Positions 4,614-12,086 of a stretch of 15,592 bases of DNA are shown piece after piece. Made by a program: the position numbers and the translations under genes. Under the pieces are notes generated by a model. That model was not told where the DNA came from and made no database searches. It saw only the letters and a list, made by a program, of their open reading frames with translations. This DNA is from an uncultured bacterium (GTDB taxonomy: Bacteria; Zhuqueibacterota; QNDG01; DSAB01). The DNA lies in contig CAYYPT010000044.1 of NCBI GenBank assembly GCA_964473625.1, positions 1 through 15,592 of the forward strand. Reading direction: 5' to 3'. Each line of letters begins with the position of its first letter. Position 1 is the first letter of the stretch.

Positions 4614-5462
4614 ATGCGTACAATTCACGTTGGTTCTGTTCCGATTGGGGAAAATTATCCGTTAGTTTTAATAGCAGGACCGTGTGTTATAGAATCTCTG
4701 GATCTAGTTTTGCAGGTAGCTGATACTGTGAGTAAAATTTGTGCAAAACTTAAAATTCCTTATATATTTAAGTCTTCATATCTGAAAGATAACAGGTCTT
4801 CATCCCTCAGTTTTCAGGGGCCGGGTTTGGAAGAAGGCCTTAAAATACTTGAGAAGGTAAAAAATGAGATAGGTGTTCCTGTTCTTTCTGATGTACACGA
4901 TCAACACAACATGAAAGCTGCGGCAGAAGTCTTAGACGTAATTCAAATCCCTGCTTATCTTTCCATGCAAACGAGCCTCACTCTGGCAGCGGCCAGAACA
5001 GGAAAAGTTATCAATGTAAAAAAAGGACAATTTCTCGATCCTCATGATGTAAAAAATATTGTAGGGAAGATCGAAGGGGAAGGGAATTATAATATCCTTT
5101 TAACAGAAAGAGGAAGCTGTTTTGGATATCACAACCTTGTAGTTGATATGCGCTCTTTTAAAATAATGCGTGAAATCGGATACCCAGTAGTTTTTGACGC
5201 AACGCATTCTATTAGAATATATGGGATTCCAAGTTCTGATCCCAGAGGGGGAGTTCCTCAATTTGTTCCAGCACTTTCTCGTGCAGCTGTAGCTGCTGGA
5301 ATAGATGCTATTTTCATTGAAACACATCCTCATTGTAGTGATGCACTTTGTGATGCAGCCAGCATGTGGCCTCTGGATCTTTTGGAACCTCTTCTTCTGC
5401 AACTAAAAGATATAGATGAGATGGTAAGATCCCAGAAAGAAATTGAACTGGAGGTGAAATGA
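4614..5462 (+). CDS. kdsA: 2-dehydro-3-deoxyphosphooctonate aldolase (Kdo-8-phosphate synthase)
   Basis: 282 aa: [12 protein letters not shown]...DVHD...VLQIPA...FDATHS. This is the KdsA/DAHP-synthase-fold signature. GGGAG SD upstream of ATG 4614. Confidence 0.9.
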
Positions 5463-6109
5463 AATTTTTTGTTGATACTGCAGATGTTGAAGAAATAAAA
5501 GCGGCAAAAGCTCTTGGCCTTGCCGATGGTGTTACAACAAATCCCACGCTTATCCAGAAGTCGGGGAGAGATTTTCGCGAAACAATTACAGAAATAGCAG
5601 AACTTGTTGAGGGCCCTGTTAATGCCGAAGTTGTCAGTACTGATCTTAAAGGGATTATCAAAGAGGGAAAAGAAATGGCAAGCTGGGCTCCTAATGTTGT
5701 TATAAAAATTCCAATTACAAGGGAAGGCCTTGAAGCTGTTAAAGTTCTTGAATCCGAAGGAATCCATACTACAGTCACCCTTATTTTTTCTCCCTCTCAG
5801 GCTCTTTTAGCAGCCAAAGCCGGTGCTTCTTACATTTGTCCTTTTGTTGGTCGGCTTGATGATATTTCTCTGAATGGAATGGCTGTTGTTGAAGAGATAG
5901 CAGAGATTTATTATAATTATCCTGACATTAAAACTGAAATTATTGTTGCAAGCATCCGTACGCCAAATCATGTTTTAGAATCAGCACTCATTGGTGTGGA
6001 CGGTGTCACTGTTCCTTTCAAGGTTATTGAAAAGTTAATACACCATCCGCTGACTGATATCGGAATCAAGCGGTTCTTGGATGATTGGGAGAAGGTATGG
6101 AAGAGATAA
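5459..6109 (+). CDS. tal: Short-type transaldolase / fructose-6-phosphate aldolase family protein
   Basis: 216 aa: [16 protein letters not shown]...GVTTNPTLI...KIPIT..G...[26 protein letters not shown]. Closely parallels B. subtilis Tal and E. coli FsaA/TalC. The ATGA overlaps the kdsA stop. Confidence 0.9.
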
Positions 6110-8403
6110 GTGTAAAAATAAGCCAAGATCAAGATAATAATGAGCTAGTCATACTAGATAAAAATCGTGTTAAATTACCTAAATTATCTGCGGCAGAGAT
6201 GATAACTAACTTTGGGATCAAAAGTGAACATTATAAATGGAGCCTTAATCAAATCCGTGAACTCTATCACAAATTAGAAAGCCATAGAGAATCGAGTTTA
6301 AATCATCTTTTTAAGGAGTGGGAATCTATATATTCCCGAATATATGAAAAGTCCCCTTCTTTAGAGATTTTCCTGAACCAAGTTTACTTAACTGTTATAG
6401 CTAAGGCAACTCTATTTTTGAAATTTTCTACGAAAGATGCAGTGGATATTATTAATTGGCCTTCTTTTGATAAAAATACCATAGACTTTACTGGATGGAT
6501 GACTGATGAGAAGATAGTTAATAATGCAATAGTTTTGTTTCAAAAAACGGCAAAGATACTGTCAAATTATGATTTAGCAATTATAGAAGAAGATGTCTTC
6601 AGAGCATTATATGAAGAAATAATTGAGGGAGCTCAGAGGCACAAACTTGGTGAATATTATACACCAAAGTGGCTTGTAGGACTTGTTTTAAAAGAAGCAC
6701 TATCGCTGTGGGATAGAAATTTTCCTCCGAAAATTTTTGATCCAGCTTGCGGTTCTGGTACATTTTTAGTTTATGCAGCTTTATACTTAAAAGAAAAATA
6801 TAAATTACCTGCCAACGCCCTTGTAGAATATATTGCTGGATTAGATATAAATCCTATTGCAGTTATAGTAGCAAAAACAAATCTTGCAGTAGTATTGGAT
6901 GATCCTAATCTTTCCCGATTTCAAATCTATAACCGAGATGCATTAAAGAACTATGATTTATTCGATTCCAATACAGATGTAAGTAGATATAACGTAATTG
7001 TAGGGAACCCTCCTTGGATTGTGTTAAGATCAATTAAAAATAAAAATTATCAAAATTTTGTTAAAAAGGAAATGATAAAGTATAAGTTGATAACAAATGG
7101 TGACGTGCATCTTTATACCCAATTGGACACATCGGCACTATTTTTCAATAAATGCACGGATAGATATCTAAATAAAAATGGTATTATCGCTTTCGTAATG
7201 CCCAGAAGTGTAATTGGAGGTACCCATCAACATAAAAATTTCAGAAAGTTTAAATATCCTTCAACAAGGCTAATAAAAGTTATTGATTTGGAAGAGGTTA
7301 ATCCGCTTTTTAATATGCCTTCCTGTGTATTAATAGGTCGCAAAGGTGATAGGAATGTCTATCCAGTTCCTTTGGATAAATATAGAGGGGAGTTACCCGA
7401 TAGAGATTTAGATTTCCAAAATGCAAAATCGATCTTATGTTTGCAGAGTGATAAATACATCCCGAAAATTAATGGAGAGAAAAAAAGTTATTACTATAAT
7501 AAATTCAAAGTCGGATTAAGTATTTTCCCCCGTTCCTTTTACTTCCTCGACTTGGAGCGGATTAATGACAAAATTGTCTCAGTTAAAACGTCTAAAGAAG
7601 TCCTTAGAATCGTAAAAGAACCTTGGAAACATGAATTAACCGGAGCTATCGAGAAGGATTTTATATTTTGTACTATTCTTCCCTGTAAAATGGTGCCATT
7701 TGGGTATATGGAAGTGCATCCAGTGGTTTTACCTATAAGGAGAAATGACAAATATGAGCTTCTTGACTTTAATGATATGAAACAAATGGGTTGCAATGGC
7801 TTGTATAAATGGTTTAAAAATGCCCAAAGAATATGGGATAATTATAAAACTGAGAAGGCTAAAGAGAGATTTCCACGATTATTAGATAGACTTAATTACA
7901 ATAATCTTATTGAGTTTCAGCACCCTGGCAATAAATACGTCGTTCTATACAATGCCACTGGCAAAAATATAACATCCTGTGTTATAGACAAAAGATATCT
8001 CCCCGAATTTATGGTAAATAGTAAAAATCTTCACCCAAAAGGATTCATAGCGGATGTTAAAACCTGGCTATTTGAAACAAATTCCGAAAATGAAGCATAT
8101 TACCTTGCTACAATTCTTAATTCTGCTCTTCTGAACATGCTAATTAAGCCTTTTCAACCTCGCGGTTTGTATGGTGCAAGAGCGATACATCGCAGACCGT
8201 TAGAATTTCCGATATCAAAATTTGATGATAAAAATGGAACACATGCTGAAGTCGCTTTGTTAGGGAAAAATCTTCATTCAAAAGTCCAAAATTTAATCCA
8301 GAAAAATATATCTAAGAGTCAGATAAGAAAATATATACAAAATGATCTCAGTAAAATAAATATGCTTATGAAGAATTTGTTTCGGATAGAGGAGGTAAGC
8401 TAA
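6097..8403 (+). CDS. Gamma-class N6-adenine-specific DNA methyltransferase, 769 aa from ATG 6097. It carries a ~180-aa N-terminal domain and a ~450-aa C-terminal putative target-recognition region. Probable R-M or defense-system component.
   Basis: Motif [11 protein letters not shown] (about 6649-6678). Motif [16 protein letters not shown] (about 6736-6780). Motif [12 protein letters not shown] (NPPW at 7006-7017). The order X-I-IV with a C-terminal TRD defines the gamma class. ATG 6097 follows GGGAG (6087-6091) at 5-nt spacing. The track's TTG 6085 is an alternative start. The region is very AT-rich relative to its flanks. Confidence 0.85.
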
Positions 8404-9152
8404 TGTCAGTTAATAAGCTAAGCTTAATCCAAACTCTTCGGAGGATAAAACAGGAGTATGAAGATGCGATAAGAAATGGAAATTATACTAATTTGATACG
8501 TTCAAAGAAATTAATAAATATACTTCATAAGTTCGTTATAAGTGAATTGCGTAATATGGTAAATGATGGTTGGATAATTACAGATAAAAAGGTGTATGGA
8601 TTCCCAAAGAAAAAAGAACAAGATATTCTAATTCAGCCCCCTCAAGATGGTACAAACATTACTGTGGGACCTATGCTTTCTATTAACGTGAGAAGCCAAT
8701 TGAGTTCTATCGAGAAAAATTATGATACTCTTTTTGAAAGGATTTTTGCCGAGGCACTGAATTTACACAATCGTTTTCCATACATGGTTTTAGGATATCT
8801 ATATTTGCTTCCATATATTGGGTATGATTCTGATGCTGCAAAGGAAAGAGAGGTAAGACTTAGAGAGCAGTATGATTTAGAAAAATATATTTTGAGTTTT
8901 CTTTCAGTTTCTGGTAGGCAAAATCCAAGTGACGTTCCTTGGAAATACGAAAGGATATGTTTGCTAATAGTAGATTTTGCAGAGGATCCTCCCAAGATAA
9001 TTGATGATATGAAGCTATTTGTTGAAAGAGATTTAGTATCTGAAAAATTTGCAAATATGTATAGTTTTAATAGTCTATCAATAGAGAATTTCTTCAATGA
9101 ACTTTATAAGTATATGATGGAAAGGCACTATCTTTTGATTAAGGGTGATTAA
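8403..9152 (+). CDS. Hypothetical 249-aa protein translationally coupled to the methyltransferase. Candidate cognate restriction endonuclease or other defense effector; unproven.
   Basis: ATG 8403-8405 overlaps the MTase TAA (8401-8403) as TAATG. Same AT-rich composition as the MTase. No recognisable family motif; a weak D...(E)QD stretch at ITDKKVYGFPKKKEQDILIQ is the only PD-(D/E)xK-like candidate. Confidence 0.6.
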   Translation: MSVNKLSLIQTLRRIKQEYEDAIRNGNYTNLIRSKKLINILHKFVISELRNMVNDGWIITDKKVYGFPKKKEQDILIQPPQDGTNITVGPMLSINVRSQLSSIEKNYDTLFERIFAEALNLHNRFPYMVLGYLYLLPYIGYDSDAAKEREVRLREQYDLEKYILSFLSVSGRQNPSDVPWKYERICLLIVDFAEDPPKIIDDMKLFVERDLVSEKFANMYSFNSLSIENFFNELYKYMMERHYLLIKGD

Positions 9153-9159
9153 AAATGGT

Positions 9160-9300
9160 TAAACGCAGCGACGGCGGGCACTCTTGCGGCCCTTCGAGTT
9201 GCTCGGGGTGATCACACTCTCACCTAACAGTGTGTGTATGGTTCGTTCTATTTACTCAAATGTTGCCTTAGGTGTTTTGCGAACTCGCCACTTCTTAGGT
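9160..9300. other. GC-rich structured non-coding segment. Possible small RNA, insertion scar or att remnant.
   Basis: Abrupt switch from about 25 percent GC in the island genes to a GC-rich run (gcagcgacggcgggcactcttgcggcccttcgagttgctcggggtg). Hairpins cgag-ttg-ctcg (9195-9205) and cacact-N10-agtgtg (9213-9234). No ORF of 60 aa or more on either strand. Confidence 0.35.
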
Positions 9301-9350
9301 AAAACATTTAAAAAGAATTGTATCTATAAATAGCTATTGGCATTACTGTT

Positions 9351-10310
9351 ATGAGCATTGAAAAAGGAAAAGAGGTCATCAGGATAGAAGCCGAAGCTGT
9401 CCAGGCTCTGATAGATCGGATTGATGAAAATTTTGAAAAAGCTGTAAATATGCTTTTGAACTGTAAGGGAAGAGTTATCGTAACTGGTATGGGAAAGTCC
9501 GGAATTATTGCCCAGAAGATTGCTTCCATGTTAACCAGTACAGGTACAGCAGCTTTTTTCCTTCATCCTGCTGAAGGCGTGCATGGTGATCTTGGAGCTG
9601 TTTTAAAAGAAGATGTTGTTATCTGTATTTCCAAAAGCGGTAACACTGAAGAGATTCTCCGATTGCTTCCCCTTTTCAGGCGCCAAGGGGTTCCTCTTAT
9701 AGCGCTGACAGGAAATTTGAATTCTGATCTTGCCAAGCGAAGTGATATTGTATTAGACGTAAGTGTAAAAGAAGAGGCCTGTCCTTACGACATCATTCCG
9801 AGTTCCAGTACTACTGCTGCCCTTGTTATGGGAGATGCTTTGGCACTGGCAGTTTTTCAGGAAAGAGGCTTGAGTGTTGAAGACTTTGCTCAGTTTCATC
9901 CCGGAGGCGACATTGGTAAACGTCTGCTTCTCAAAGTGGACGATGTAATGCGAACGGGAGAGGACATTGCCAGCGTAAATGTGGATACTCCTCTTCCCCA
10001 GACGATTCTGGAAATTACTTCCAAAAGGCTGGGAGCTACCTGCGTAATGAATGGTAATGGAAAGCTGGCAGGGATTATTACTGATGGCGATCTTCGCCGT
10101 CTCATGGAACAAAGACATAATGTATGGGATCTTAAAGCTAAAGATATTATGACGAAAGATCCTAAATGTGTTCCTTCTGGCGTATTAGCAGCAAAGGCAC
10201 TTCATGTTATGGAGGAATACAGTATTAACCAGTTGATAGTTGTGGATGAGAAGAATCAGGCAGTGGGTATGGTTCATGTTCATGACTTGTTAAAAGCAGG
10301 GCTTGCTTGA
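9351..10310 (+). CDS. kdsD: Arabinose-5-phosphate isomerase (KdsD/KpsF family; SIS domain plus tandem CBS domains)
   Basis: 319 aa. VIVTGMGKSGIIAQKIASMLTSTGT...FLHP.E..HGDLG is the SIS domain. The C-terminal CBS pair ends VVDE...VGMVHVHDLLKAGL. The alignment to E. coli KdsD holds over the whole length. No SD is visible before ATG 9351. Confidence 0.85.
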   Translation: MSIEKGKEVIRIEAEAVQALIDRIDENFEKAVNMLLNCKGRVIVTGMGKSGIIAQKIASMLTSTGTAAFFLHPAEGVHGDLGAVLKEDVVICISKSGNTEEILRLLPLFRRQGVPLIALTGNLNSDLAKRSDIVLDVSVKEEACPYDIIPSSSTTAALVMGDALALAVFQERGLSVEDFAQFHPGGDIGKRLLLKVDDVMRTGEDIASVNVDTPLPQTILEITSKRLGATCVMNGNGKLAGIITDGDLRRLMEQRHNVWDLKAKDIMTKDPKCVPSGVLAAKALHVMEEYSINQLIVVDEKNQAVGMVHVHDLLKAGLA

Positions 10311-10323
10311 AGGACAAAGCAGT

Positions 10324-10965
10324 ATGAAAAGAAATATTTTTTTATATTTGTTTTTCCTATTTTTTCTGTGGATATTTTTATCAGGATGTGCAAGGAAAAA
10401 GCATGAGAATGTTTTAATAACGGATCAACAAAATAAAGAATATCCCAGTCAAGAAGGATGGAATTCTGAAATAATTCTTTCGAGAGCAGGCCTTTGTCAG
10501 GCTGTAATTCATTATGCTCACATGGTGAAATATGATAAGAAAAAAGTGGTTTTTTTTGATGGGGGAGTTGAAGTGGATTTTTATGATAAGAATGGGAATC
10601 ATACTTCACATCTGACTTCTGAAAAAGGAGAATATCACGAAGCAACAGAAGATGTTGTTGGGTTAGGTAATGTAGTTGTGGTATCAGACAGTGGAGTTAC
10701 ACTCCGAACAGAAGTTTTAAGGTGGGATAACAGACGAGAAAAGATTTTTTCTGATACGACTGTAATGATAACTACTGAAAAACACGATACTCTTTACGGT
10801 GTTGGATTTGAATCCAATGCTGATTTGAGTCACAGGGTTATTTATAAACCGTGGGGGATAACTGATAAAAAAATAAATATCCAGGAACTTGAGACTTCGT
10901 TTTCTCGATCTTCTCGTAATGATACTTTGGCAAGAAAGGATTCTACTGTAATCAAAAAGAAATGA
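10324..10965 (+). CDS. lptC: LptC-like LPS export component, predicted lipoprotein
   Basis: Position between kdsD and lptA/lptB, as in the E. coli kdsD-(kdsC)-lptC-lptA-lptB-rpoN locus. Size is about 213 aa from ATG 10324. The N-terminus MKRNIFLYLFFLFFLWIFLSGC has a signal peptide and an L-S-G-C lipobox. The track start TTG 10303 is less likely. Assignment rests on synteny and size, not motif identity. Confidence 0.5.
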   Translation: MKRNIFLYLFFLFFLWIFLSGCARKKHENVLITDQQNKEYPSQEGWNSEIILSRAGLCQAVIHYAHMVKYDKKKVVFFDGGVEVDFYDKNGNHTSHLTSEKGEYHEATEDVVGLGNVVVVSDSGVTLRTEVLRWDNRREKIFSDTTVMITTEKHDTLYGVGFESNADLSHRVIYKPWGITDKKINIQELETSFSRSSRNDTLARKDSTVIKKK

Positions 10966-12086
10966 GGCTAATAACACAAATATTTATTTTTGTTCTTTTT
11001 TATCTTGTGGGAAGTAGAACAATTCTTTTTTCTGAACCTGTGAAGTCTTCACCTGTGGAACATCTAAAATTGGTTCATGCGGATAGTTTGGTAATTGTTT
11101 CGATCAAAGGTAGAGATGTTCACGAACTGTGGGGTAATGTGCAGCTTGTTCAGGGAGAAGCATTCTTATCCTGTGAAATGGCGAAGTGGTGGCAGGGTGA
11201 AGACAGATTGCTTCTTCTTGGCATGGTTACAATTTACGATGGGAAACGTACTCTAAAAGCAGATCGAATATACTACGACGGTAAAACAAGGGTAGAAAAA
11301 GCTTTCGGACATGTTCTTCTCGAAAGTAAAAAAAGAAAATTAAAAGCCCGGTCTCTTATATATTTTCAAAAAAAGGAAAAGGCGTTTGCTTCTGGAGATG
11401 TAGTGATATCGGATCTTATTGAGAAGGTTAAATTGTTAGGGGAAAAAGCTCTGTACGATCGCTCTATGGACTACGGTGTAATAGAAGGTTGTCCCAGGTT
11501 AGTTAAGATCGATACTACTTCAGGCAAAATGATGATAGTAAGAGGGCTAAAAATAGAGGCATGGGGGAAAGAGCAAAGAGCTGTTGTCTCTGATAGTGTT
11601 CAGATAACAAAAGGTGATATGAAAGCTTTCTGTCAGAAAGCGGAGTATAGGTCTGAGAAAGATTTGCTTATTTTAAAAATAGAACCTATAGTCTGGCAGC
11701 AACAACGAGAAATGCGGGCTGATAATATTAATATTCAACTGGAAGGGTTGAAGTTTTCCAGGGCTTTTCTTACGGGAAAAGCAGAGATTATTTCAAAAGA
11801 GGATAGTGTTAAAAATGTACTGAATGGAGAAAAAATTACAGTAACTGCCAGTGACGATACTGTTCGCAGGGTGGTAGTAGAAGGGCAGGCAAGCAGTATG
11901 TACCATATTTTTGATGAAGTCAGACATGAACAGGGAACTAATTCTGTCACAGGAGACATTATTGTTCTTACTTTTGATGAGAATCGTTTAAAAGAGGTTA
12001 AAGTGAAAAGCAGCCCTGGCCAGTGTACAGGTGTTTACACACCAATAGAAGTAAGTACGGGAATGGTGAAAGGAAAGAGTCTGTGA
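10962..12086 (+). CDS. lptA: LptA/OstA-family periplasmic protein. Long 374-aa form, probably tandem OstA-like beta-jellyroll repeats.
   Basis: N-terminal signal-like [18 protein letters not shown]. The internal [21 protein letters not shown] resembles the LptA/OstA_N core. Sits immediately upstream of lptB. The ATGA overlaps the lptC stop. Confidence 0.55.

Follow-up and report, generated by a model that had tools for sequence, protein, structure and literature searches.

The window analysed here, a stretch of 15,592 nucleotides from a contig of an uncultured bacterium of the Zhuqueibacterota (CAYYPT010000044.1), carries two adjoining genes on its forward strand: an open reading frame (ORF) at positions 8403–9152 that starts with ATG and encodes a 249-amino-acid protein and, directly upstream at 6097–8403, the gene of a 768-amino-acid gamma-class N6-adenine DNA methyltransferase (MTase). 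An initial annotation, made from the DNA letters, had delimited and translated the 249-codon frame just as we find it, had noted its one-base overlap with the MTase gene and had remarked on the AT-rich composition of both genes, and all of these readings hold: the TAATG stop/start junction lies at 8401–8405, with the MTase TAA (8401–8403) and the downstream ATG (8403–8405) sharing one base, and the G+C content is 0.327 for the MTase gene and 0.317 for its neighbor, compared with 0.387 in the remainder of the window. The role favored at that time, a Type II restriction endonuclease (REase) acting with the adjacent MTase, is now supported by five independent lines of evidence. Because the protein matches a restriction-enzyme family model, has a predicted PD-(D/E)xK fold, is linked to MTases, occurs in decayed copies, and is accompanied by depletion of the palindrome CTRYAG, we conclude that it is very probably the REase of a two-gene Type IIP restriction-modification (R-M) system whose site is most probably CTRYAG. 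Its identity as a nuclease is solid; its specificity for CTRYAG we infer.

The initial annotation described the frame as an ORFan, a description that did not survive database searching. We found 736 homologues of the 249-amino-acid protein (E ≤ 1e-3, among 90%-identity clusters), and an exhaustive profile search yielded 251 family clusters at 50% identity, spread over many bacterial and archaeal phyla. Genome matches came from Atribacteria, Cytophagia, Clostridia, Patescibacteria, ANME-1/Methanophagales, Methanofastidiosia, Bathyarchaeia, Nitrososphaerota, Thermococci, Acidilobaceae and Halobacteria, a patchy cross-domain spread that is typical of mobile defence genes; a phage collection held no homologue. 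The protein matches the PADLOC model PDLC03558, "REase_II" (E = 1.6e-41, 140.7 bits, residues 29–237 on model positions 43–280 of 293), in a library without a curated cut-off in which core members of PDLC03558 score ~300 bits. Homologues from Firmicutes also score ~300 bits on this model, and some of them are labelled "restriction endonuclease" by NCBI. That no motif could be assigned to the protein, as had been stated, is right for Pfam (E ≤ 0.1) and NCBIfam, which gave no match, and for PDB, where sequence searches with the single sequence and with a 54-member profile returned chance matches only and no nuclease; it is not right for PDLC03558. The label "hypothetical protein" carried by family members follows from these empty Pfam, NCBIfam and PDB searches. 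One further member, encoded at 5001–5846 of locus L001, has 281 amino acids, scores 293 bits on PDLC03558 and lies between genes for a major facilitator superfamily transporter and a DNA helicase.

The upstream gene is identified as an adenine MTase by Pfam matches to N6_Mtase (E = 2.6e-19) and Eco57I (E = 4.3e-14) and by a translation that contains motif I followed by motif IV, NPPW; its best PADLOC match is the Type IIG fused enzyme-methyltransferase model PDLC03630 (E = 2.4e-49). An NPPW adenine-MTase motif is consistent with the N6-methyladenine (m6A) that has been reported at CTRYAG-like motifs (PMC6265443). The true start of the MTase gene is most likely the ATG at 6097, rather than the TTG at 6085 where the mechanical ORF begins, because a GGAG element lies upstream and the gene is called as 768 amino acids in the near-identical contig L026, whose MTase gene is identical to the window copy. 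This start overlaps the stop codon (6107–6109) of the preceding gene tal, with the ATG 13 nt inside the tal end. The nuclease gene, in turn, is preceded by a Shine-Dalgarno element read from the sequence, AGGAGG at 8390–8395, which lies within the end of the MTase gene on the same strand and 7 nt ahead of the ATG; GGAGG-like elements stand ahead of the nuclease start in loci L008, L009, L010 and L014 as well. The junction between the two genes is tight in nine mapped orthologous loci, with the genes overlapping by up to 28 nt or lying up to 28 nt apart (−28 to +28 nt), and the TAATG arrangement recurs in L003 and L009. Across the whole nuclease gene the near-identical metagenome contigs L026–L028 differ from the window at a single codon, codon 43 (8529–8531), which specifies K here and E there; residue 43 adjoins the near-invariant H42, and E is the family majority at this position, with K found in some other members. 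Two antisense ORFs, at 8720–9097 and 8860–9054, were dismissed because they fall within the conserved coding frame.

Pairing with an MTase is a property of the family in bacteria as well as archaea, and the genes are arranged in three different ways. An orthologous MTase (40–72% identity) lies directly upstream of a nuclease orthologue (59–72%) in ~17 genome loci, whose hosts include Atribacteria, Cytophagia, Clostridia, ANME-1, Bathyarchaeia, Nitrososphaerota, Thermococci and others. Five loci with more distant homologues (32–51% identity) adjoin other Eco57I-family MTases. Three of these pairs are convergent (L017, L019 and L020), from Halorientalis (51% identity) and two Patescibacteria (40–41%), and two are divergent (L024 and L025), on plasmids of Lactobacillus sp. 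D1501 (36% identity, 298 beside 585 amino acids) and Limosilactobacillus oris (37% identity, 300 beside 615 amino acids, the latter with a TaqI_C domain). Since the window and lactobacillus MTases have only their catalytic domain in common (27% over 193 amino acids), the nuclease family has exchanged one MTase partner for another, a behavior shared with independent Type IIP enzymes. The nuclease gene is broken in three orthologous loci (L015, 5842–6484; L018, 5528–5904; L023, 6001–6501), by frameshift, truncation or internal deletion of approximately residues 100–176, and the neighboring MTase gene has stayed intact in L015 and L023 but falls into two frames in L018. These broken copies reflect either genuine decay, along the usual path of R-M systems, or errors of metagenome assembly.

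Structure prediction and fold comparison had been proposed as a check on the nuclease assignment, and both point to a restriction enzyme. An AlphaFold2 model built from a 38-sequence alignment (mean predicted local distance difference test score (pLDDT) 82, predicted template modelling score (pTM) 0.82) places a helix at residues 36–50, strands at 58–64, 71–77 and 92–98, a helix at 107–124 and a strand at 129–137; with this alpha-beta-beta-beta-alpha-beta core the protein is predicted to belong to the PD-(D/E)xK superfamily. The best structural neighbors of the model are nearly all Type II REases, PD-(D/E)xK enzymes, and the weak top matches of a Foldseek search of the PDB are likewise restriction enzymes, including the R.BspD6I small subunit and BbvCI. 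The other nuclease folds considered, HNH, GIY-YIG and phospholipase D (PLD), gave no Pfam match at E ≤ 0.1, the structural neighbors being PD-(D/E)xK enzymes instead. Four longer members of the subfamily (P0037, P0061, P0085 and P0119; 275–298 amino acids) have an extra insertion of ~45 residues between beta-2 and beta-3, after window residue ~82; it is rich in K and E, is probably helical and occupies the very loop that the window protein has in its shortest form.

Conservation among 54 diverse family members singles out candidate active-site residues within this core. D74 and N106 are invariant, and R33, H42, E/D61, K69, K71, Q73, R/K97, S98, Q99, S102, K105, D108, T109, E112, R113, E117 and D191 are kept in at least 87% of members. 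D61 (codon 8583–8585), in strand beta-1 and E or D in 51 of the 54, is a candidate for the first acidic residue; D74 (8622–8624), in beta-2 and preceded by the conserved K69, K71 and Q73, would by its position in the fold be the "D" of the PD motif. Strand beta-3 holds N95-V-R97-S-Q99 (8685–8699) in the place of (D/E)-x-K, where the family has (N/G/S)-x-(R/K)-S-Q, with position 97 being R in 48 and K in 4 of 54 members and Q99 kept in 53. The helix that follows carries the segment E112 to E117 (8736–8753), in which E112 and R113 are each conserved in 48 members and E117 in 52, and which may supply a relocated acidic residue. The active site of NgoMIV, Cfr10I and PspGI has the form E...D...S-x-K...E, and by analogy D/E61, D74, N95-x-R97 and E112/E117 could form a catalytic site of similar layout. 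Of the nuclease-like hint D60...E72-Q-D74 offered in the initial annotation, the last residue is borne out by its invariance; the first is in fact D61, and E72 is not conserved.

The hypothesis of CTRYAG as the target came from Staphylococcus pseudintermedius ED99, for which a PADLOC-called pair, MTase_II (33256–35017) and REase_II (35075–35966), has been reported with the REBASE-based predicted site CTRYAG (PMC13198106, 2026). A family member from this strain, P0388 (ADX75381.1, 296 amino acids), is 33% identical to the window protein (E = 3e-30) and fits the reported REase_II by strain, length and early genome position. With CTRYAG as the prior hypothesis, we compared observed counts with maximal-order-Markov expectations for 352 exact or singly degenerate 6-bp palindromes. 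Across 18 carrier loci taken whole (147 kb), CTRYAG was observed 44 times against 93.2 expected, an observed/expected ratio (O/E) of 0.47 and the strongest depletion of all 352 patterns; in the carrier flanks only it ranked second (43 observed, 75.4 expected, O/E 0.57), and inside the R-M genes (49.5 kb) a single site remained where 22.8 were expected (O/E 0.04, rank 1/352). By contrast, 80 control loci chosen through kdsD (584 kb) gave 337 sites against 360.8 expected (O/E 0.93, rank 188/352), a value equal to the median O/E of all patterns in that set, and the 15 closest host relatives (117 kb) gave 85 against 88.6 (O/E 0.96, rank 209/352). When all 16 CTNNAG words were compared, O/E was 0.40–0.50 for the four R-Y words and 0.55 for CTCGAG, and the rest lay between 0.81 and 1.10. 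The window itself has six CTRYAG sites, with none inside the island formed by the R-M genes. The depletion was seen only in loci that carry the system; it is specific and was predicted in advance, and the recognition site is most probably 5′-CTRYAG-3′. Other palindromes were also scarce in these sequences: inside the R-M genes of the 18 loci the next most depleted was GMATKC (14 observed, 41.4 expected), and GATC, CTAG and GGCC were strongly depleted across the 18 loci as a whole, which may be due to further R-M systems in the hosts or to common ancestry of the genes.

Several points weigh against this assignment. Cleavage activity, like the dimeric state, the exact site, the position of the cut and the catalytic residues, is deduced from sequence and the structural model. 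The window protein represents a divergent subfamily, scoring 141 bits on PDLC03558 compared with ~300 for Firmicutes members; profile searches established no sequence link to any solved REase, and the best Foldseek match in the PDB (E = 0.02) fell short of significance. A canonical (D/E)-x-K triad is absent, beta-3 having N-V-R, and it is unusual for an arginine to stand where the catalytic lysine would be. The homologue on the 898-kb plasmid of Pontibacillus sp. ALD_SL1 (L001) has no detected MTase within 5 kb. As for the site, the carrier loci are short and partly homologous, and the R-M genes are homologous and hence not independent of one another; two carriers, L004 and L011, show no depletion in their flanks; and the sharing of no more than a catalytic domain with the Firmicutes MTases (27% over 193 amino acids) means that specificity could have shifted.

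This last point leads to the first alternative, a genuine Type II REase paired with this MTase that recognizes another site, for example a related or subset palindrome adopted after the subfamily diverged. The window protein and the ED99 enzyme are only 33% identical, the partner MTase comes from another lineage and shows no detectable resemblance in its target-recognition region, and the ED99 site is itself a REBASE prediction reported in a paper (PMC13198106). A shifted site would have to be reconciled with the ranking of CTRYAG as the most depleted of 352 patterns in loci of the window-type pair (1 versus 22.8 in the genes, 0.57 in the flanks) and not in controls, and with the depletion of all four R-Y words (0.40–0.50), CTCGAG (0.55) being the only other low CTNNAG word; we consider it unlikely. 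The large size of the MTase (768 amino acids) and its best match to a Type IIG fused model (PDLC03630), together with the small size of the nuclease (249 amino acids) and the presence of subunits of heteromeric enzymes (R.BspD6I small subunit, BbvCI) among the weak Foldseek matches, could instead suggest a nuclease subunit that has no DNA recognition of its own and is recruited by a Type IIG-like MTase, in the style of Type III or split Type IIG systems. Such an arrangement is quite improbable given that the family pairs with at least three unrelated Eco57I-type MTase lineages or arrangements (768 amino acids upstream; 585–615 amino acids divergent; others convergent), as a self-sufficient enzyme would, that the depletion falls on a symmetric palindrome, as expected for a homodimer, and that ~100 residues outside the catalytic core are strongly conserved.

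A toxin, an abortive-infection (Abi)-like effector or a regulatory or specificity protein that merely rides with the MTase is the least credible reading, and we give it almost no weight. It draws on the same absence of a Pfam or NCBIfam family, on the "hypothetical protein" label of most database entries, on the non-canonical (D/E)xK triad and on the solitary homologue at L001. Against it, PADLOC matches REase_II only, with no Abi or toxin model, the fold neighbors are mostly Type II REases, the protein has no helix-turn-helix or controller-protein features, and palindrome avoidance in the carriers is the signature of sequence-specific restriction; the toxin, Abi-like or novel effector raised earlier as an alternative finds no support here or in the gene context, which offers an MTase only. 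With the Type IIP REase retained as the preferred reading, we tentatively suggest, as a narrower possibility and one more doubtful than not, that the window protein belongs to a compact, probably thermophile- and archaea-associated CTRYAG subfamily in which specificity was kept, the MTase was swapped for an unrelated Type IIG-like enzyme of 768 amino acids, and cutting relies on a non-canonical PD-(D/E)xK site, N-x-R, with Arg for the catalytic Lys.

The two genes form an inserted R-M island of 3,205 bp (6097–9301, forward strand) that separates tal (transaldolase) from kdsD. In L030, the closest relative found, tal and kdsD are ~91% identical to the window at the amino-acid level and the R-M island is absent; DNA homology with L030 ends at 6096 and restarts at 9302, and in more distant relatives tal is followed directly by kdsD. 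The island has a G+C content of 0.333, compared with 0.387 outside, and begins exactly at the MTase ATG; its insertion altered the end of tal, which reads ...DDWEKVWKR here and ...DDWKKVNI in L030. At the same junction L030 bears a different cargo of 613 bp (773–1385), comprising a DUF433-domain frame, apparently without a clean start, and a 58-amino-acid ORF, which marks the tal–kdsD junction as a variable site. The right end of the island (9153–9301) is a 149-bp non-coding segment that is locally G+C-rich; the segment 9153–9350 matched no Rfam family, folded no better than shuffled sequences (z = −1.2) and found no match among other R-M loci. A controller (C) protein or third gene was ruled out, as the island holds no candidate ORF. 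The remaining genes of the window are housekeeping genes, with gatC, kdsB, pyrG, kdsA and tal upstream and kdsD, lptC, lptA, lptB, rpoN and a Band_7 protein gene downstream. Past the point corresponding to the right end of the window, contig L026 continues after the Band_7 gene and a 123-amino-acid ORF with a 458-amino-acid reverse-transcriptase (RVT_1) gene (9937–11313), which could belong to a group II intron or a retron-like element near the region that hosts the island.

These features suggest how the system might operate. Promoter- and terminator-like matches in 5400–9600, which covers the island and both flanks, occurred at chance level, and as the insertion leaves no room for a promoter of its own, the MTase and nuclease genes would be co-transcribed, probably by read-through from the kdsB-pyrG-kdsA-tal operon. 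The TAATG overlap would couple translation of the two genes, such that the nuclease would not be made without the methyltransferase. The MTase would then N6-methylate the target adenine and shield the CTRYAG sites of the host, while the nuclease, most likely a Mg2+-dependent homodimer, would cleave unmethylated incoming DNA at the same palindrome.

The protein is a divergent addition to a known restriction-enzyme family and is not conceptually new. Its assignment nonetheless allows several hundred entries now called "hypothetical protein", from metagenome-assembled genomes of bacteria and archaea, to be reannotated as Type II REases with the predicted site CTRYAG. The family has neither a Pfam or NCBIfam model nor a solved structure, and a predicted PD-(D/E)xK fold with N-x-R would be a modest addition to enzymology. 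Orthologues from hydrothermal and ANME-type archaea raise the prospect that the enzyme could be a thermostable isoschizomer of SfcI. The locus also offers an example of an insertion hotspot, with a mobile R-M cassette placed seamlessly inside an operon for 3-deoxy-D-manno-octulosonic acid (KDO) synthesis and lipopolysaccharide (LPS) transport and using the upstream operon for its expression. The LlaBI family was listed with an "unknown" fold in a 2008 classification of Type II enzymes (PMC2441816); should the reading of a compact N-x-R subfamily prove true, it would provide the first fold and active-site assignment for an enzyme family of "unknown superfamily" in that classification.

Among known systems, the closest are the PDLC03558 members, namely the ED99 nuclease (ADX75381.1) and the homologues on lactobacillus plasmids, which resemble the window protein over nearly the full length (33% identity for the ED99 protein). 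They have R33, H42, K71, Q73, D74, R97-S-Q99, K105-N106, D108-T109, E112, E117 and D191 in common with it, are also paired with an Eco57I-family adenine methyltransferase and have the same inferred target, CTRYAG. The window protein is ~45–50 residues shorter than the Firmicutes members (249 versus 296–300 amino acids), with shorter loops, and has Y132 where most PDLC03558 members have E. Its MTase has 768 amino acids, belongs to another lineage and lies upstream, co-oriented and joined by a stop/start overlap, whereas those of the Firmicutes members have 585–615 amino acids and are divergent or adjacent. The hosts differ too, being mostly uncultivated archaea and bacteria (ANME-1, Atribacteria, Bathyarchaeia and others) for the window-type subfamily and Firmicutes for the other. 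More remote are 12 solved PD-(D/E)xK Type II enzymes of the EcoRI-like branch (PspGI, EcoRII-C, Ecl18kI, NgoMIV, Cfr10I, Bse634I, SgrAI, AgeI, BsaWI, Kpn2I, PfoI and BstEII), which are 5–17% identical to the window protein, give no hidden Markov model (HMM) match and recognize different sequences; the lysine of their S-x-K or E-x-K is replaced by arginine in most members of the window protein's family.

By specificity, and not by protein sequence, the window enzyme can be likened to SfcI, SfeI and LlaBI, which produce 4-nt 5′ overhangs by cleaving C^TRYAG and have the recognition sequence inferred for it. LlaBI comprises a nuclease of ~299 amino acids and a gamma-type adenine MTase of ~580 amino acids encoded divergently, a layout like that of the Lactobacillus sp. 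D1501 plasmid pair (298 and 585 amino acids, divergent), beside which we set it by this general description and its matching specificity. A Lactococcus member was absent from the 225 homologues of the lactobacillus protein, from PLSDB plasmids and from ten 90%-identity clusters. The passage of PMC4712225 that cites Nyengaard et al. (1993) gives C^TRYAG as the cleavage site of LlaBI, from Lactococcus lactis W56, the same palindrome that is depleted around the window-type gene pair.

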